From: a virus
Taxonomy: Duplodnaviria; Heunggongvirae; Uroviricota; Caudoviricetes
DNA length: 12,249 nucleotides
Reading direction: 5' to 3' (one strand)
Virus record (IMG/VR): IMGVR_UViG_2737471839_000006
Span: 1 to 12,249 of that record
Every line of letters begins with the position of its first letter. Within the stretch, counting starts at the first letter, position 1. The notes beneath the pieces were generated by a model. It saw only the letters and a program-made list of their open reading frames with translations. It searched no databases and was not told where the DNA came from. Below are positions 2,322-10,580 of the stretch, one piece after another. Made by a program: the position numbers and the translations under genes.

Positions 2322-3824
2322 TTAAATTGCATCTGCAAACTCTGTGATTTTTCGCTCAAGTATGATTGATGAGTTGCTGTTGTCGATTTTTTTATTTTCA
2401 TGATTACGAATAGCCAATGACTCATTAAAGTCTTTTGCGACTGCTGTCTCAATAAATTCAATTTCTGAATCAGAGTGTTTTTTAACAGCTTCTTTGATCT
2501 CATCCAGAGTAACATAGAAAAACTCTTTTCTACGATTTACAAGATTGACTCTCTTTTTATCGAAGACATCATGTAGTTTTTTTTCTAATGATGGAGCGTC
2601 CTCCGAATAAATCATGGCATGCACATCAAAAATAAAAGGAACAGATGCATCACCAAGCTCATTTACACGGTCTTGTGGATCAAGACGTCGTGTCATGCCT
2701 ATTTTATAAACATTCTCCCCAAAAGAACCTATGTTCGAAATAATATAAACATGACCTTGTTTGGTTTGTTGTGCCATGGATAATGCTCTTTGATGCTTTG
2801 ATTCAGCCTGCGACAAACTCTGTTCTAGTTCGGCAATGCGATTTTCGAGGCGCTGCTTCATGTCACCAGTAACTTTTTCCATTTCCTTTCTTGCAGCTTC
2901 AATTGCTTTTTTATAACGGCGCTCTTCTGCCTCTGCGTCTTGCATGGCCTTTTCTATTTCTCGTTGTGCACGCTCCTCCTCTCTCATTTGTGCCCTTATT
3001 TCTGCCTGTTCTTCTTTTTCTTTCTGTTTTTGCTCACGATATTCATGGGTAAGCCACAACTCCTCAAGTTTTTTATTAAGGTATTTAGTATTTATATATA
3101 TGTGATTTTGCTCGTTTAGTTTATTTATGGCCTCAAATGCCTTTGTGATGCGTTCTTCCATTTTAGTGATATTTTTCCACGTGCAATTACTAATTGCAGC
3201 ATCACATTCATTATTAAATGCTCTAGTAGTTAGCCTAATATTTCTGTCTGTCATTTTTTTACCCTCTGCTCGAGAGCCTTCAACAGTCCATTGGGTTGTG
3301 CAATATACTGCACCAGAGTGGGTTTTATCCCGCAGCATTAATTTCTGTTCATCCCTGATGGATTTTATTTTGTTTTTAAATTGCTCTGAATCTTCAAAAT
3401 TAAAATGAGGTTCGTAAAATCCTAGTTCGGCTAGTTCAACATCTTCTGAATAAATAGAAATTTGCTTTACTAGCTTATCATATATTTCTTTCTTCTCTTT
3501 ATAAGTTCTTCTTAGTTCTTGGATTTGTTTATTGATACCATCCATTTTTTCAATGGTGTTTGTTAGTTCATTATTGGCATTTTCTTTTACTTTTTGGGAC
3601 TCTTCTTTTATAATGGAGCATTCTTGCTCTGTTTTCTCAATAAGCTTCTTACATTCCTCTTCCACATTAAAATAATCTGCAAAGCGAGATTTGTATTCTT
3701 CATTTTTTTGATTGCTATCACTTAATTCTAATTGTATTTTTTTGATGCGTTTGATTGCAGCTATATATAGAACAAGAACAACCAATAAAAATATGATTGC
3801 AAGTAATAGTGGAGTTTGAGTCAT
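2322..3824 (-). CDS. Membrane-anchored coiled-coil protein with C-terminal T5orf172/MUG113-type (GIY-YIG superfamily) domain; middle region resembles DUF4041 (500 aa)
   Basis: 500-aa ORF with ATG at 3824..3822 and GGAA upstream. N-terminal hydrophobic helix (LLLAIIFLLVVLVLYIAAI, aa 5-24). Long E/K/Q/R-rich heptad-like segments (aa ~30-130 and ~250-350). C-terminal block GHVYIISNIGSFGENVYKIGMTRR...PFIFDVHAMIYSEDAPSLEKKLHDVFDKKRV...RKEFFYV (aa ~357-440; nt ~2505..2756) matches the T5orf172 signature as I recall it. AT-rich like the HD gene. Confidence 0.85.
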   Translation of the reverse strand: MTQTPLLLAIIFLLVVLVLYIAAIKRIKKIQLELSDSNQKNEEYKSRFADYFNVEEECKKLIEKTEQECSIIKEESQKVKENANNELTNTIEKMDGINKQIQELRRTYKEKKEIYDKLVKQISIYSEDVELAELGFYEPHFNFEDSEQFKNKIKSIRDEQKLMLRDKTHSGAVYCTTQWTVEGSRAEGKKMTDRNIRLTTRAFNNECDAAISNCTWKNITKMEERITKAFEAINKLNEQNHIYINTKYLNKKLEELWLTHEYREQKQKEKEEQAEIRAQMREEERAQREIEKAMQDAEAEERRYKKAIEAARKEMEKVTGDMKQRLENRIAELEQSLSQAESKHQRALSMAQQTKQGHVYIISNIGSFGENVYKIGMTRRLDPQDRVNELGDASVPFIFDVHAMIYSEDAPSLEKKLHDVFDKKRVNLVNRRKEFFYVTLDEIKEAVKKHSDSEIEFIETAVAKDFNESLAIRNHENKKIDNSNSSIILERKITEFADAI

Positions 3825-3872
3825 TCGTGCTATTCCTTACGGACAATTTAAGACGTTTTGTATTAAATCCTG

Positions 3873-3882
3873 TTCAATGTGT
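3873..3882. promoter_or_regulatory. Second copy of the 10-mer TTCAATGTGT, 49-58 bp upstream of the start of the 500-aa gene
   Basis: Read directly; identical to 2022..2031. On the minus strand it reads ACACATTGAAC, again ending in a -35-like TTGAAC. Confidence 0.35.
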
Positions 3883-4152
3883 ATGCGGGTGATTGCTACC
3901 GCTTACAATCTTCATAATTATCAGTTAGATAGACTCGCTAGTAAATAATTTCATTTTTTGCAATATTCTTATTGAATATTTCAATTTATGAAATGAACTC
4001 TTTATCCTTTCAAGGCGAAAGGTTTCTTCTTCGGAAATATTTGCTCTCGTGTGACGTATAAAGGCCTTTGATTTTTAAAAAACAGTAGGGAATAATATAG
4101 TTACTGTCGGCCTGAACACCCGGCGGTGGGGTTGCGCTAAACGGGGACGTTT

Positions 4153-4254
4153 ATGCGCACATACAATCTAAACTCTCTTCTCCCTTCACAGATGCAGAAA
4201 TGCACCTGCGATTTTTTGCATCCAACGTTTGACCTCTGCGGAGGTGAAGCGTGA
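4153..4254 (+). CDS. ylcH: Small 33-aa ORF, YlcH-like, overlapping the ybcN start by 4 nt
   Basis: ATG at 4153 translates to [33 protein letters not shown] and stops within GTGA, which also supplies the ybcN start. Size and position match my recollection of ylcH in DLP12. Too short for the ORF track; hand-translated. Confidence 0.4.
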
Positions 4255-4706
4255 ACCTACCACAAGATGGCATCAAATTACATCGCGGCAACTTCACCGC
4301 TATCGGCCAGCAGATCCAGCCTTATCTGGAGGACGGAAAATGCTTTCGCATGGTGCTTAAACCGTGGCGTGAGAAACGCAGTCTTTCCCAGAATGCACTC
4401 AGCCACATGTGGTACAGCGAAATCAGTGAATACCTTATCAGCAGGGGGAAATCGTTCGCTACCGCAGCATGGGTAAAAGAAGCTCTCAAACACACATACC
4501 TCGGTTATGAAACCAAAGAACTGGTTGATGTCGTAACCGGTGAAATCACCACTATCCAGTCGTTACGCCATACCTCCGATCTTGATGCCGGAGAGATGTA
4601 TGTCTTCCTGTGTAAGGTTGAAGCCTGGGCGATGAATATTGGCTGCCACCTGACTATTCCGCAGAGCTGCGAGTTCCAGCTGCTGCGCGACAAGCAGGAG
4701 GCGTAA
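4251..4706 (+). CDS. ybcN: NinB-family protein (YbcN-like), 151 aa, GTG start
   Basis: ORF track 4251..4706. GGAGGTG sits 5 nt upstream of the GTG. The sequence [19 protein letters not shown]...[18 protein letters not shown] matches the DLP12 YbcN/NinB family as I recall it (lambda NinB has the analogous RSLDQN block). Confidence 0.9.
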
Positions 4707-5159: not shown

Positions 5160-5518
5160 ATACCTACAACATCACATTACCCTGGCCGCCTAGCAATAAC
5201 CGCTACTACCGGCATAATCGCGGGCGCACACACATCAGCGCAGAAGGGCAGGCATACCGCGATAACGTCGCCCGAATCATTAAAAACGCAATGCTGGATA
5301 TCGGCCTGGCTATTCCTGTAAAAATCCGCATTGAGTGCCACATGCCGGATCGCCGTCGCCGTGACCTGGATAATCTGCAAAAAGCCGCTTTTGACGCACT
5401 CACCAAAGCAGGTTTCTGGCTGGATGATGTTCAGGTCGTTGATTACCGTGTTGTGAAGATGCCCGTTACCAAAGGTGGGAAGCTGGAGTTGACCATCACC
5501 GAACTGGGGAATGAATGA
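5156..5518 (+). CDS. rusA: RusA Holliday-junction resolvase (120 aa, GTG start overlapping the ybcO stop)
   Basis: Track ORF 4982..5518 is a 5'-extended frame; GTG at 5156 (within GCGTGAAT) gives [23 protein letters not shown]...[25 protein letters not shown], which I recognise as RusA. Confidence 0.9.
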
Positions 5519-6313: not shown

Positions 6314-7411
6314 TTAGAACTGGTAAACCAGACCTACAGCAACGATGTCATCAGTGCTTACACCGAGTGCTTTAGTGAAGTCATTTTTGTCAAGCAGGTT
6401 GATTTTGTAATCAACGAAAGTAGACATATTTTTGTTGAAGTAATAGGTTGCACCTACATCAACATATTTGACTAAGTCCTGATCGCCCCATACTCCAAGA
6501 TCCTTACCTTTAGATTGCAGGTAAGCAACGGACGGACGCAGACCGAAATCGAACTGATATTGTGCAACAGCTTCGAAGTTTTGGGCTTTATTAGCAACGA
6601 AGTGATCAGCAAATACAGTCATATTCTGGGTTTCAGAATAGGTAGTGGCCAGGTAAATGTTGTTAGCATCATATTTCAGACCTGCGGCCCAAACTTCTGC
6701 ATTTTTACCGGAAGCAAATACTTCAGGAAGAACTTTCCCTGCATTAACTTGAGTGTCGGTACGATCAGATTTCGCATAAGTTGCACCGATACCGAATCCT
6801 TCGTATTCATAGGTAGCAGAGAAACCGAAGCCATCACCGTTACCTTCAGTGTAGTTATCGAAATCGCTACGATCGTTTTTGCCTTGGTACTGAGCAGCAA
6901 AGTTCAGACCATCAACCAGACCAAAGAAGTCGTTGTTACGATAGGTTGCAACACCAGTGGTGCGACCAGTCATGAACACATCTGTTTGGGTCCAGGTATC
7001 GCCACCGAATTCTGGCAGAACGTCAGTCCACGCACCGATGTCGTATGCTACACCGTAGTTACGGCCGTAATCGATTGAGCCGTAGTCACCGAATTTCAGG
7101 CCTGCAAATGCAAGACGGGTTTTGTCTTTGGAGGAACCTTGAGATTCAGCGCGGTTGCCTTTGAATTCATATTCCCACTGACCGAAACCAGTCAGTTGAT
7201 CGTTGATTTGGGTTTCACCTTTGAAGCCAAGACGGGCATAAGTAGTATCACCATCATCTGCATCATTAGAGGAGAAGTAGTGCTTAGCATTAACTTTCCC
7301 GTACAGATCCAGCTTGTTACTGTCTTTATTATAAATTTCAGCTGCCTGAGCAGACATCGCCATCAGTACTGATGCAGCTACAGCAGAAATTGCCACTGTT
7401 AATTTTTTCAT
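6314..7411 (-). CDS. nmpC: Outer-membrane general porin NmpC/OmpD-like, intact (365 aa with signal peptide)
   Basis: ORF track. N-terminal signal peptide [23 protein letters not shown] then AEIYNKD...; C-terminal ...AVGLVYQF, the typical porin terminal Phe. ATG is preceded by AAGGG. Recognised as the DLP12 porin gene, here without an IS interruption. Confidence 0.9.
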
Positions 7412-7873: not shown

Positions 7874-7984
7874 AGTCTCGATATTAGCTGATAACCCAAT
7901 ACCTGAGTTATTCACTGACTCCGAGTCTGTTACGTTTCGTAGTATTCCCTCAATTTACACCCGCTTTGTCTGCGAGGTGGGGTT

Positions 7985-8200
7985 ATGAAATCCATGGATA
8001 AGTTAACAACGGGTGTCGCCTATGGCACCTCAGCAGGTAGTGCCGGGTACTGGTTTTTACAGCTGCTAGATAAAGTCACGCCCTCACAGTGGGCGGCAAT
8101 TGGAGTGCTGGGTAGCCTGGTATTTGGCCTGCTGACGTACCTGACAAACCTTTATTTCAAGATTAAAGAAGACAAGCGTAAGGCTGCACGGGGAGAGTAA
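7985..8200 (+). CDS. essD: Class II pinholin, phage 21 S21-like (71 aa) with dual-start motif MKSM
   Basis: ORF track. [71 protein letters not shown] is near-identical to S21 as I recall it; two TM segments; Met1/Met4 dual start. Confidence 0.9.
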
Positions 8201-8204
8201 TTCA

Positions 8205-8549
8205 ATGACTCAAAACTATGAACTGATTGTGAAAGGGATCCGCAATTTTGAGAATAAAGTTACGGTAACTTTAGCGTTACGGGACAAAAAACGCTTTGAC
8301 GGTGAAATTTTTGACCTGGACATCTCGCTGGACCGTGTTGAAGGTGCCGCGCTGGAGTTTTATGAGGCAGCAGCCAGAAGGAGCATCAGACAGGTCTTCC
8401 TGGATGTTGCTGCCGGGTTATGTGAAGGGGATGAGCTGTCGCCGGAAAAGCGCCCCATAATTTTAGAGGCGCAGAATGTGTGGATAACCTACAAAGGAAA
8501 GCTACCGGGAAGAATTACTGGTTCTCTGAAGACTCCGCCGAAATGGTAA
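8205..8549 (+). CDS. Hypothetical protein (114 aa) inserted between holin and endolysin; no family recognised
   Basis: ORF track. ATG at 8205 lies 5 nt after the holin stop, with GGAGAG 7 nt upstream, so it is positioned for co-expression with late genes. No motif I can assign. Confidence 0.6.
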   Translation: MTQNYELIVKGIRNFENKVTVTLALRDKKRFDGEIFDLDISLDRVEGAALEFYEAAARRSIRQVFLDVAAGLCEGDELSPEKRPIILEAQNVWITYKGKLPGRITGSLKTPPKW

Positions 8550-8787
8550 TTTCACCAGCATATTTTTCTTCCAGTAATACCGCCAGCCACTTGAAAGAAT
8601 TTTGTTGTTGCTGGGACCATTTGGGGTTGAGTGATTCAAGCTGGAGCGATGCCAGTGTTGGTTGCATTTGTTCCTTGGGAATTGAGAATGCCAGATATGA
8701 AAATGCGACAGTAAGGGCATTTACATCATCCCGAAGCCTGGAAATGCAGTCGAGCAACTCCTGTAGAGAAATGGTGCTATTGTCCAT
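8515..8787 (-). CDS. Hypothetical protein (~90 aa), convergent with and overlapping the 3' end of the 8205..8549 gene
   Basis: Track ORF 8515..8793 starts at a TTG; the in-frame ATG at 8787 is preceded by GAGAGGA at 6-nt spacing on the minus strand. Ordinary Leu/Gln-rich composition; no recognisable family. Confidence 0.5.
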   Translation of the reverse strand: MDNSTISLQELLDCISRLRDDVNALTVAFSYLAFSIPKEQMQPTLASLQLESLNPKWSQQQQNSFKWLAVLLEEKYAGEITISAESSENQ

Positions 8788-8892
8788 AAACAATCCTCTC
8801 TATTGTATTTAACTATTCCTTGCCTGATTCAACAGGCCGGGACAGATAAACATATCCAGGGTTCAGAAACCGATAAATCCTGATAAATATCC

Positions 8893-9426
8893 ATGAACGC
8901 AAAAATCAGATACGGCCTGTCGGCTGCCGTTCTGGCACTGATTGCCGTCGGTGCGCCTGCGCCTGATATTCTCGACCAGTTTCTGGATGAAAAAGAAGGT
9001 AACCACACAACGGCATACCGCGATGGTTCCGGCATCTGGACCATCTGTCGGGGTGCCACGGTGGTGGATGGAAAACCCGTTTTTCCCGGTATGAAACTGT
9101 CGAAGGAAAAATGCGACCAGGTTAACGCCATTGAACGGGATAAGGCGCTGGCATGGGTGGAGCGCAATATTAAAGTGCCACTGACCGAACCACAGAAAGC
9201 GGGTATCGCGTCATTTTGTCCCTATAACATTGGCCCCGGTAAGTGTTTCCCGTCGACGTTTTATAAGCGGCTGAATGCCGGTGATCGTAAAGGTGCATGC
9301 GAGGCGATTCGCTGGTGGATAAAAGATGGTGGGCGCGATTGCCGCATACGTTCAAATAACTGCTATGGACAGGTTATTCGTCGTGACCAGGAAAGCGCAT
9401 TAGCCTGTTGGGGGATAGATCAGTGA
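8893..9426 (+). CDS. SAR endolysin (T4-lysozyme-like muramidase, 177 aa)
   Basis: ORF track. N-terminal weakly hydrophobic Gly/Ala-rich segment ([17 protein letters not shown]), typical of a signal-anchor-release domain. The following E-x8-D-x5-T triad ([16 protein letters not shown]) has T4-lysozyme spacing. Confidence 0.9.
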
Positions 9427-10082: not shown

Positions 10083-10580
10083 ATGAAATCATTAACCCTC
10101 TTCAATCAACCAATTCGTATCGGTGAAGATGGCATGATCTGCCTCACTGACATGTGGAAAGCTAGTGGTAAAAGTGAATCTGAATCGCCGTACCACTATC
10201 TGCGAAACAAGCAGACCAAAGAGTTCTTAGCCGAGCTGGAGAAAAACCACGAATCTGTGGTTTTTACTGAGCGCGGTGTACACGGTGGAACATATGGCGG
10301 GAAGTTTGTTGCTTACGATTATGCGGCTTGGTTAAACCCCGGGTTCAAGTACGCGGCCTATAAAGTCCTCGATGACTACTTCACCGGAGAACTTCAGCAT
10401 CGCAACAGCTTAAGTGCGCAGCTCAACATGAAATGTCATGAGTTTGACCAGAAGAAAGACATGGCGAGCTTCTGCGGACAAGGGCTGGCAGCATGGCGCT
10501 ATACGAAGCCAGTGTTGGTCGCTGAGATTAACTCCCTGGCTAACCAGCTGCAGATTACGATCCCCGGGCTTCCGGGATGA
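10083..10580 (+). CDS. KilA-N domain protein (165 aa)
   Basis: ORF track. The N-terminal region (..FTERGVHGGTYGGKFVAYDYAAWLNPGFKYAAYKVLDDYF) has the aromatic/AxWLxPxF pattern I associate with KilA-N DNA-binding domains. Confidence 0.75.
   Translation: MKSLTLFNQPIRIGEDGMICLTDMWKASGKSESESPYHYLRNKQTKEFLAELEKNHESVVFTERGVHGGTYGGKFVAYDYAAWLNPGFKYAAYKVLDDYFTGELQHRNSLSAQLNMKCHEFDQKKDMASFCGQGLAAWRYTKPVLVAEINSLANQLQITIPGLPG

Follow-up and report, generated by a model that had tools for sequence, protein, structure and literature searches.

We analyzed a 12,249-nt stretch of Caudoviricetes DNA (IMG/VR record IMGVR_UViG_2737471839_000006; hereafter the window, meaning the full stretch), taking the coordinates of its open reading frames (ORFs) from an ORF list and from direct inspection of the sequence. 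Its lysis cassette contains a phage-21-type pinholin gene and a signal-arrest-release (SAR) endolysin gene, and 692 bp separate the holin stop from the endolysin start. Two ORFs face each other in this interval: ORF1, a 114-aa member of the YdfR/DUF1327 family on the late strand, and ORF2, here called orf90, on the opposite strand; their 3′ ends overlap by 35 nt (8515-8549). On balance, we favor the view that they are two separate accessory genes of lambdoid prophages in a convergent moron-pair layout, in which orf90 would be a moron with transcription of its own and YdfR a soluble accessory protein made late. A preliminary description of this DNA had placed all of these features correctly (holin end at 8200, endolysin start at 8893, ORFs of 114 and 90 aa, 35-nt overlap). 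The features of the locus are:

7985-8200, plus strand: pinholin gene (phage-21-type class II holin, essD); Pfam PF04971 Phage_holin_2_1, E = 2e-35; 'phage lysis protein EssD' in the Prokaryotic Genome Annotation Pipeline (PGAP)
8205-8549, plus strand: ORF1, ydfR-family gene (DUF1327), 114 aa; Pfam PF07041, phrog_406; PGAP 'YdfR family protein' WP_001468348.1
8205-8411, plus strand: YdfR N-terminal domain, residues 1-69; from homology to K-12 Qin YdfR and AlphaFold2
8412-8549, plus strand: YdfR tail module, residues 70-114; from alignment, low confidence in AlphaFold2
8444-8472, minus strand: candidate terminator hairpin GCGCCUC-N9-GGGGCGC followed by UUUUCC; in minimum-free-energy and centroid folds
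8480-8812, plus strand: mirror ORF of orf90, 110 aa, not a gene; stops in diverged copies, no family match
8515-8787, minus strand: ORF2 (orf90), 90 aa; PGAP 'hypothetical protein' WP_000370550.1; phrog_2411
8794-8800, minus strand: Shine-Dalgarno sequence GAGAGGA of orf90, 6 nt 5′ of the ATG; read from the sequence
8822-8837, minus strand: hairpin GCCUG-UUGAAU-CAGGC in the orf90 5′ region; from a fold of 8780-8900 (minus strand), z = -2.3
8848-8896, minus strand: stretch homologous to the 5′ third of the leader of HK022 srb/ES18 gene-25 type morons; nhmmer E = 1.8e-4
8893-9426, plus strand: SAR endolysin gene (phage lysozyme); Pfam PF00959 Phage_lysozyme, E = 1.4e-24; PGAP 'lysozyme'

A gap of 4 nt separates the holin stop from ORF1, whose ATG is preceded by GGAG (8192-8195) at a distance of 9 nt; this placement agrees with the co-expression with the holin proposed earlier. 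The endolysin gene R starts 343 nt past the end of ORF1. The region 7900-9000 is 100% identical to an Escherichia coli chromosome (NZ_CP053787.1), where a lambdoid prophage has the gene order quuD, porin (minus strand), essD, 'YdfR family protein', 'hypothetical protein' (minus strand), lysozyme and lysis protein. Because PGAP annotates both ORFs there, neither is new as a sequence. ORF1 matches the Pfam profile of DUF1327 with 142.8 bits against a cut-off of 25 (E = 4.1e-42; residues 1-112 align to positions 1-92 of the 93-position profile) and phrog_406 at E = 1.5e-67; scans of NCBIfam and PADLOC-DB v2 (the latter at E <= 0.1) gave no match. DNA corresponding to any part of ydfR is present in 4349 of 5426 complete E. 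coli genomes (about 80%, at 8618 places) and reaches a coverage of at least 80% in 1906 of them. Homologues also occur in 101 phage records, mostly from Shiga toxin (Stx)-converting phages, and the ratio of nonsynonymous to synonymous substitution rates (dN/dS) of the gene is 0.41.

YdfR of the Qin prophage of E. coli K-12 (b1555, P76160) belongs to the same family as ORF1, and its gene likewise directly follows an S21-type holin gene, essQ. The two differ in that the K-12 protein has 103 aa and an unrelated C-terminus, that in K-12 the genes run essQ-ydfR-rrrQ, where ydfR overlaps the rrrQ start with its stop and the antisense gene is absent, and that Qin is a cryptic prophage. Homology between the window and K-12 extends to YdfR residue ~69 (window ~8410), with about 88% identity between the proteins over residues 1-69, and resumes at the endolysin start; the sequences in between are unrelated. 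The tail of the window protein (residues 70-112, ...EKRPIILEAQNVWITYKGKLPGRITGSLKTPP) is the common form, which hardly varies among 20 diverse members, the O157 type among them; the aligned motif EKRP.ILEAQ..ITY.GKLPG.ITGSLKTPP is replaced in K-12. Past GSLKTPP the family diverges into KW* (window), ESQP* (empty sites, described below), LA* (O157) or a coiled-coil extension of 60-70 aa (176- and 183-aa forms). These long forms (P0121 and P0106, respectively) look like DUF1327 fused to a coiled-coil segment that overlaps the 3′ end of orf86, an alternative antisense gene.

AlphaFold2 models the N-terminal domain of YdfR as a β-β-β-α unit (strands 5-14, 18-27 and 34-43; helix 50-73), with a predicted local distance difference test score (pLDDT) of 64-86 for the block; residues 71-114 score below 50 and are disordered or of low confidence. 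YdfR has no hydrophobic segment: its maximum 19-residue Kyte-Doolittle value is 0.69, compared with 1.72 for the holin and 1.87 for the SAR endolysin, the latter with a hydrophobic N-terminus. A literature search on DUF1327 returned experimental data for the K-12 protein only (PMC13232886), and K-12 ydfR is still listed among uncharacterized genes (PMC11551758). In two-hybrid and co-purification assays, the K-12 protein binds to RNase E through the enzyme's N-terminal (catalytic) half, and its own first 72 residues suffice for this; it also co-purifies RNA, and its overproduction hardly alters the transcriptome (PMC13232886). When the RNA degradosome inhibitor Dip of phage phiKZ (gp37) was compared with the YdfR model (pLDDT 60), the score lay within the noise expected for a small β-β-β-α unit, and we treat it as a lead and not as a relationship. 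Dip binds the scaffold region of RNase E, whereas K-12 YdfR binds the N-terminal half. RNase E binding is the sole experimental lead for this gene, whose position inside a lysis cassette makes a late-infection role in RNA metabolism directly testable.

Turning to the minus strand, orf90 is a genuine protein-coding gene. It matches phrog_2411 over its entire length (E = 1.6e-59, residues 1-90 of 90), and the strong ribosome-binding site and reverse orientation reported for it earlier are borne out by GAGAGGA at 6 nt from the ATG. Among 5.8 billion proteins, its homologues form 64 clusters, all from Escherichia or Shigella bar one partial record labeled Pseudomonas; most are exactly 90 aa long at 68-97% identity, and a few are frameshifted variants. 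Across 21 distinct full-length DNA copies, variable sites are distributed 19/12/28 over the three codon positions, substitutions are conservative, and dN/dS computed on the non-overlapping codons is 0.32. This ratio alone is unable to tell two overlapping strands apart, as the 110-aa mirror ORF on the plus strand gives 0.19, owing to wobble positions that it has in common with orf90. The orf90 frame is open in every homologue and the mirror frame is interrupted by stops in three diverged loci (L085, L086 and L090), and therefore the minus strand is the coding strand. The mirror ORF was accordingly rejected as a real gene, its low dN/dS being an artefact of wobble sharing. A TTG at 8793 was also considered as the orf90 start (8515-8793, 92 aa) and rejected as too near the Shine-Dalgarno sequence; the ATG is the start that PGAP uses.

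A profile search of 1.84 billion representative sequences found only 20 proteins; those with a source name are from Klebsiella, Atlantibacter, Sodalis, Brenneria and E. coli and are all called 'hypothetical'. These proteins have in common the motifs AFSYLAFS and ALxFES, and the relatives in Klebsiella, Atlantibacter and Sodalis are full-length. The frame is kept over 90 codons at about 57-60% identity in other contexts and at about 26-36% in other genera. AlphaFold2 predicts a three-helix bundle (helices 8-34, 38-52 and 59-76; mean pLDDT 82), followed by a disordered tail (residues 81-90) that corresponds to the part encoded by the overlap with ydfR. The product is acidic (pI 4.3) and soluble, with a maximum 19-residue Kyte-Doolittle value of 0.88. 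No match was found in Pfam, NCBIfam or PADLOC-DB v2 (E <= 0.1), and a Pfam scan of 11 family members gave chance-level scores only. A profile search against Protein Data Bank (PDB) sequences returned nothing, and structure searches with the model gave generic helical matches only. The preliminary description had assigned neither ORF to a family; this holds for orf90 in Pfam, NCBIfam and PADLOC and fails for ORF1, which is YdfR/DUF1327 as in K-12 Qin. ORF1 is a member of a known, uncharacterized family, and orf90 belongs to the unnamed small family phrog_2411 and behaves as moron cargo. It offers a clean case of a real, selected, narrow-range small protein without detectable relatives of known function.

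The S-R-Rz/Rz1 cassette of phage 21 has the same type of flanking genes as the window (pinholin and SAR endolysin); S21 and R21 are presumably adjacent in that phage, while ydfR and orf90 lie between them in the window. Relative to cassettes with abutting S and R the two ORFs are indeed added DNA, as had been proposed, and the suggested comparison with related prophages yielded cassettes without orf90 in K-12, O157 and a further locus (L084). The slot that follows GSLKTPP in homologous cassettes holds nothing, orf90, orf86 or orf79. Where the slot is empty, a 207-bp stretch replaces the 481-bp window segment 8412-8892 (L084), a 50-bp spacer is present (O157), or ydfR overlaps R (K-12). The segment 8412-8892, comprising the YdfR tail, orf90 and the spacer, is found at a coverage of at least 80% in 1130 of the 5426 complete E. 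coli genomes, a fifth, and orf90 is in 3 phage records. The alternative genes orf86 (WP_001625288.1; 294 genomes) and orf79 (WP_001168526.1; 102 genomes) are also antisense, and hhalign of orf90 against each of them found no detectable similarity. These counts and the PGAP annotation of both genes do not support an unusual arrangement: the insert is prophage DNA of an ordinary, widely annotated E. coli kind, and it does not amount to a novel regulator of lysis or a new defense pair. It is common and conserved, as had been allowed for, though not a lysis accessory of known function.

Relatives of orf90 also occupy other positions. In an Atlantibacter prophage the gene lies antisense between tail genes M and L and overlaps a 71-aa late-strand ORF by 7 nt, and in Klebsiella prophages it is antisense near the terminase gene; further relatives are located between dinI and bssS in an enterobacterium, in the Sodalis ligni chromosome and on an IncF plasmid. 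Diverged copies at about 57-60% aa identity occur next to iha in E. coli PKF11 (L086, 3946-4218) and downstream of an autotransporter gene on the IncF plasmid (L085, 3971-4240); both sit among insertion sequence remnants in virulence-gene neighborhoods. The iha-adjacent copy is flanked by decayed remains of the endolysin start (ATG to ATA) and of the ydfR tail, and its 90-codon ORF is intact, which speaks for orf90 having been selected independently of the lysis genes. We had considered this copy as an independent insertion and rejected the idea, as the endolysin and ydfR remains identify it as a decayed lysis-cassette remnant.

Two further arrangements were noted. Phage phiSTEC1575-Stx2k (L092, 1285-3303) has pinholin-ydfR-orf90 followed by two further holin genes and an M15 peptidase gene, with no SAR lysozyme; its pinholin block may be a remnant or a second holin system. 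E. coli B strains (L101, NEBExpress, 2577-4476) carry essD-ydfR-orf90-rrrQ-Rz at 98% identity in the Rac prophage, by sieB/ydaF and trkG.

By definition, a moron is additional DNA that separates two genes found side by side in related phages (Juhala et al. 2000, as summarized in PMC3594210). Such genes are expressed while the prophage is repressed, and the lysogen benefits from them (PMC3594210). orf90 is extra DNA in this sense, being absent from L084, O157 and K-12. The single-gene morons gp15 of HK97 and bor and lom of lambda are similarly extra genes between conserved late genes (PMC3594210), whereas their products are membrane or surface proteins with known phenotypes and that of orf90 is soluble, acidic and helical. 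A candidate terminator hairpin (8444-8472, minus strand) follows the orf90 stop by 43 nt, inside ydfR codons 81-90, and is retained with a compensatory change in L086 and L089. Upstream of the gene, L090 has AGCCUG-UUGCCU-CAGGCU in place of the window hairpin at 8822-8837.

Closer parallels come from two phages in which the pair lies among tail genes. In Salmonella phage ES18, gene 24 (DUF1327) on the late strand is convergent with the small antisense gene 25 ('possible moron'); the depositors put a putative terminator of gene 25 within gene 24, and that of gene 24 immediately ahead of tail gene L. The window has the same two-gene layout, and its candidate terminator hairpin within ydfR would be analogous to that of gene 25. 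ES18 differs in that the pair lies between tail genes M and L, that gp24 is short (86 aa as annotated), and that gp25 is unrelated to orf90 and has a full leader, described below. A DUF1327 gene with a convergent antisense small gene is therefore a recurring unit outside lysis cassettes. In HK022, gp22 and gp23 ('srb protein; moron gene product') also form a convergent overlapping pair whose antisense member is opposite late genes, with a terminator-like hairpin past srb. Unlike in the window, the site of this pair is the interval from tail gene I to tail gene J, gp22 falls outside the DUF1327 family, and srb follows the conserved leader and belongs to a different cargo family, the largest sampled; the meaning of 'srb' could not be traced in our literature search. 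As judged from the annotated sequences, the pair in the window repeats the layout of ES18 24/25 and HK022 22/23 at a different slot.

The leader preceding these antisense genes proved to be widespread. A hairpin with covarying stems precedes orf79, orf86 and the orf90 relatives of Atlantibacter and Klebsiella, and its core motif occurs in more than 120 IMG/VR contigs (L102-L221). The leader that contains it is also present in HK022, HK633, mEp213, mEp043, ES18 and SPN3UB, among others, with matches in 24 phage records and 224 of the 5426 E. coli genomes. The conserved region spans ~150 nt (L222 (HK022), 1501-1642; L223 (ES18), 1501-1633; L089, 1842-2012, minus strand; L096, 4843-5013). In 125 copies it precedes very different small ORFs (median length, 80 aa), which encode 69 distinct proteins; these fall into at least 22 families without relation to one another. 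The only recognizable domains among them are DUF1883 and an aspartyl protease, and no PHROG match has an assigned function. From 5′ to 3′, the leader has first a hairpin that resembles a terminator and faces the late strand, then the helix CAGGGU/ACCCUG and the hairpin CGUCAGUG-GUGGGA-CACUGGCG; the last hairpin, AGAGG-GAUGGCUGAUUA-CCUCU, immediately precedes the Shine-Dalgarno sequence. These four helices are 90.9% paired, compared with 36-49% when the partners are slid, and contain 61 double-sided changes where 15 are expected, a value reached by 0 of 500 shuffles. Many of the pairs are G-U, which would be mismatched on the opposite strand, and the structure therefore belongs to the cargo strand.

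Cassettes with this leader are antisense to late genes. Recognizable tail genes adjoin 45 of the 125, and 34 of these 45 lie between L and M; others occupy a terminase-proximal slot, the ydfR|R junction (one, the orf79 locus) or, in HK022, the tail I|J junction. A convergent partner ORF lies beside 116 of 120 leader-bearing cassettes. In 93 of the 120 it is a coiled-coil late-strand ORF of ~51 aa (MTLEQRVEELEAMVDSMKAQ...; e.g., L190, L197 at 287-622 relative to the motif, and L096 at 5261-5476 on the minus strand) with an overlap of 18-54 nt, and in 6 IMG/VR cassettes it is DUF1327. The orf90 gene has this same layout, being antisense to S-ydfR-R, convergent and overlapping ydfR by 35 nt. The window retains the 5′ third of the leader only: nhmmer with a profile of 80 leader sequences matched 8896-8848 (minus strand) to model positions 31-79 (E = 1.8e-4), overlapping the endolysin start codon on the other strand. 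Both downstream hairpins (CGUCAGUG/CACUGGCG and AGAGG-GAUGGCUGAUUA-CCUCU) are replaced by GCCUG-UUGAAU-CAGGC, while the full leader is carried by the Atlantibacter orf90 homologue and by orf79, and by orf86 with a variant hairpin. No relevant family emerged when the window and five loci were scanned against Rfam.

A wider reading that we put forward tentatively, and hold to be possible at most, is that orf90, orf86 and orf79 belong, as cargo, to a cassette system that is widespread among the temperate phages of enterobacteria and so far undescribed. The leader would serve as a shared post-transcriptional control, the face-to-face layout would confine the cargo to lysogeny, the hypervariable cargo would act as weapons or counter-weapons between phages or between phage and host, and the window copy would be a derived one that has lost most of its leader. 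Our literature search, which did not reach the key HK022 and ES18 papers, found no earlier description of such a family. Antisense small-gene cassettes are exchanged at several places, among them the slot at the ydfR 3′ end, and a conserved structured leader common to many unrelated cargo genes may merit a study of its own.

For the window itself, the favored reading of two accessory genes in a moron-pair layout implies the following course. YdfR would be made with the lysis proteins from the Q-dependent late transcript and, by analogy with its K-12 homologue, would act as a late accessory protein directed at RNA or RNase E, and not as a membrane lysis component. orf90 would have a separate transcript, beginning in the region that covers the endolysin start and ending at the hairpin and UUUU inside ydfR (8472-8444), and would be expressed in the lysogen while the late operon is off. 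After induction, head-on Q-antiterminated late transcription and the resulting antisense RNA would silence it; an effect of convergent transcription into the late operon, raised in the preliminary description, is plausible. Judging from genes of its kind, the orf90 product, one of many interchangeable cargo proteins, would most likely act by binding a protein of the host or of a rival phage and modulating it, as happens in lysogenic conversion or exclusion.

Several observations weigh against this reading. A sigma-70 scan found no consensus promoter upstream of orf90, the best candidate by eye being TTGAAT-19 nt-TACAAT; the same scan found none in the canonical ES18 and HK022 leaders either. 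The candidate terminator has only four U and was not called by a terminator scan, and its hairpin is also present in cassettes without an antisense gene, for which reason we rejected the idea that it is specific to antisense-bearing cassettes. The GC content of orf90 is 0.445, compared with 0.46-0.50 for ydfR, 0.495 for the holin gene and 0.524 for R, a gap too modest to mark it as a moron by composition. The link of YdfR with RNase E comes from two-hybrid and pull-down assays with the overproduced K-12 protein (PMC13232886), whose C-terminus differs. Finally, no family, structure or defense-library match (Pfam, NCBIfam, PADLOC, PDB and structure searches) assigns orf90 a role.

The alternative that survives best, albeit as an unlikely one, is a lysis-timing module, in which YdfR would be an antiholin-like or release-control factor acting on the pinholin or SAR endolysin and antisense orf90 transcription would tune endolysin expression. 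Position suggests such a role: ydfR lies between S and R and is coupled to S, its stop overlaps the R start in K-12, and it accompanies S21-type holins in many Stx phages, staying by the pinholin even where the endolysin type has changed. In addition, R begins only beyond the 343 nt that follow ydfR, so that any orf90 transcript would be antisense to late mRNA, and a genetic screen, as cited in PMC13232886, reportedly links ydfR to envelope integrity. The fit is nevertheless poor. Neither YdfR nor orf90 has a transmembrane, SAR or signal segment (Kyte-Doolittle maxima of 0.69 and 0.88), and both are separate ORFs and not alternative holin starts. To our knowledge, the lysis regulators described for pinholin systems, antiholins included, work in the membrane or the periplasm. 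DUF1327 with an antisense partner also lies between ES18 tail genes and in the 6 IMG/VR cassettes, orf90 relatives occur far from any lysis gene, and cassettes without orf90 are common. The direct lysis-regulator role entertained in the preliminary description is thus unlikely, given two soluble proteins and the same pairing among tail genes.

We consider it very improbable that YdfR and orf90 are a mutually needed toxin-immunity, toxin-antitoxin or small anti-phage defense pair, another of the possibilities raised at the outset. A convergent overlapping layout does recur (ES18 24/25, HK022 gp22/gp23, and the 116 of 120 leader cassettes), and the cargo is highly variable, as in conflict systems. 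The idea is contradicted by the co-occurrence pattern and by the absence of a PADLOC match for either protein at E <= 0.1. Co-occurrence is not obligate: ydfR DNA is found in 4349 genomes against 1130 with the orf90 module, 294 with orf86 and 102 with orf79; ydfR stands alone in K-12, O157 and L084; and orf90 relatives are solitary or paired with an ORF other than DUF1327. By hydropathy, neither protein resembles a membrane-active type I toxin. That orf90 is no functional protein at all, and is either an annotation artefact or an RNA-only antisense regulator of the late transcript, is hardly credible: the promoter scan result, the narrow taxonomic range, the want of any functional annotation, the even lower apparent dN/dS of the mirror frame and the frameshifted variants would fit it, and it is contradicted by a frame that stays open across genera where the mirror breaks, as well as by a strong Shine-Dalgarno sequence at the right spacing, conservative substitutions, a confident three-helix fold, full-length relatives in Klebsiella, Atlantibacter and Sodalis with AFSYLAFS and ALxFES, and an ORF preserved in the decayed iha-adjacent remnant.

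Two neighboring genes in the window were also inspected. A gene for an OmpC/NmpC-like porin of 365 aa (6314-7411, minus strand; PGAP 'porin') lies antisense between the Q antiterminator gene and the holin gene, a position that is a classical site for lysogenic-conversion genes. On the other side, a 165-aa ORF 3′ of Rz (10083-10580, plus strand) is annotated by PGAP as 'GIY-YIG nuclease family protein' and matches KilA-N/Rha-like transcription-regulator families in PHROGs (phrog_129, E = 2.7e-61); one related prophage has a KilA-N protein at the equivalent position.

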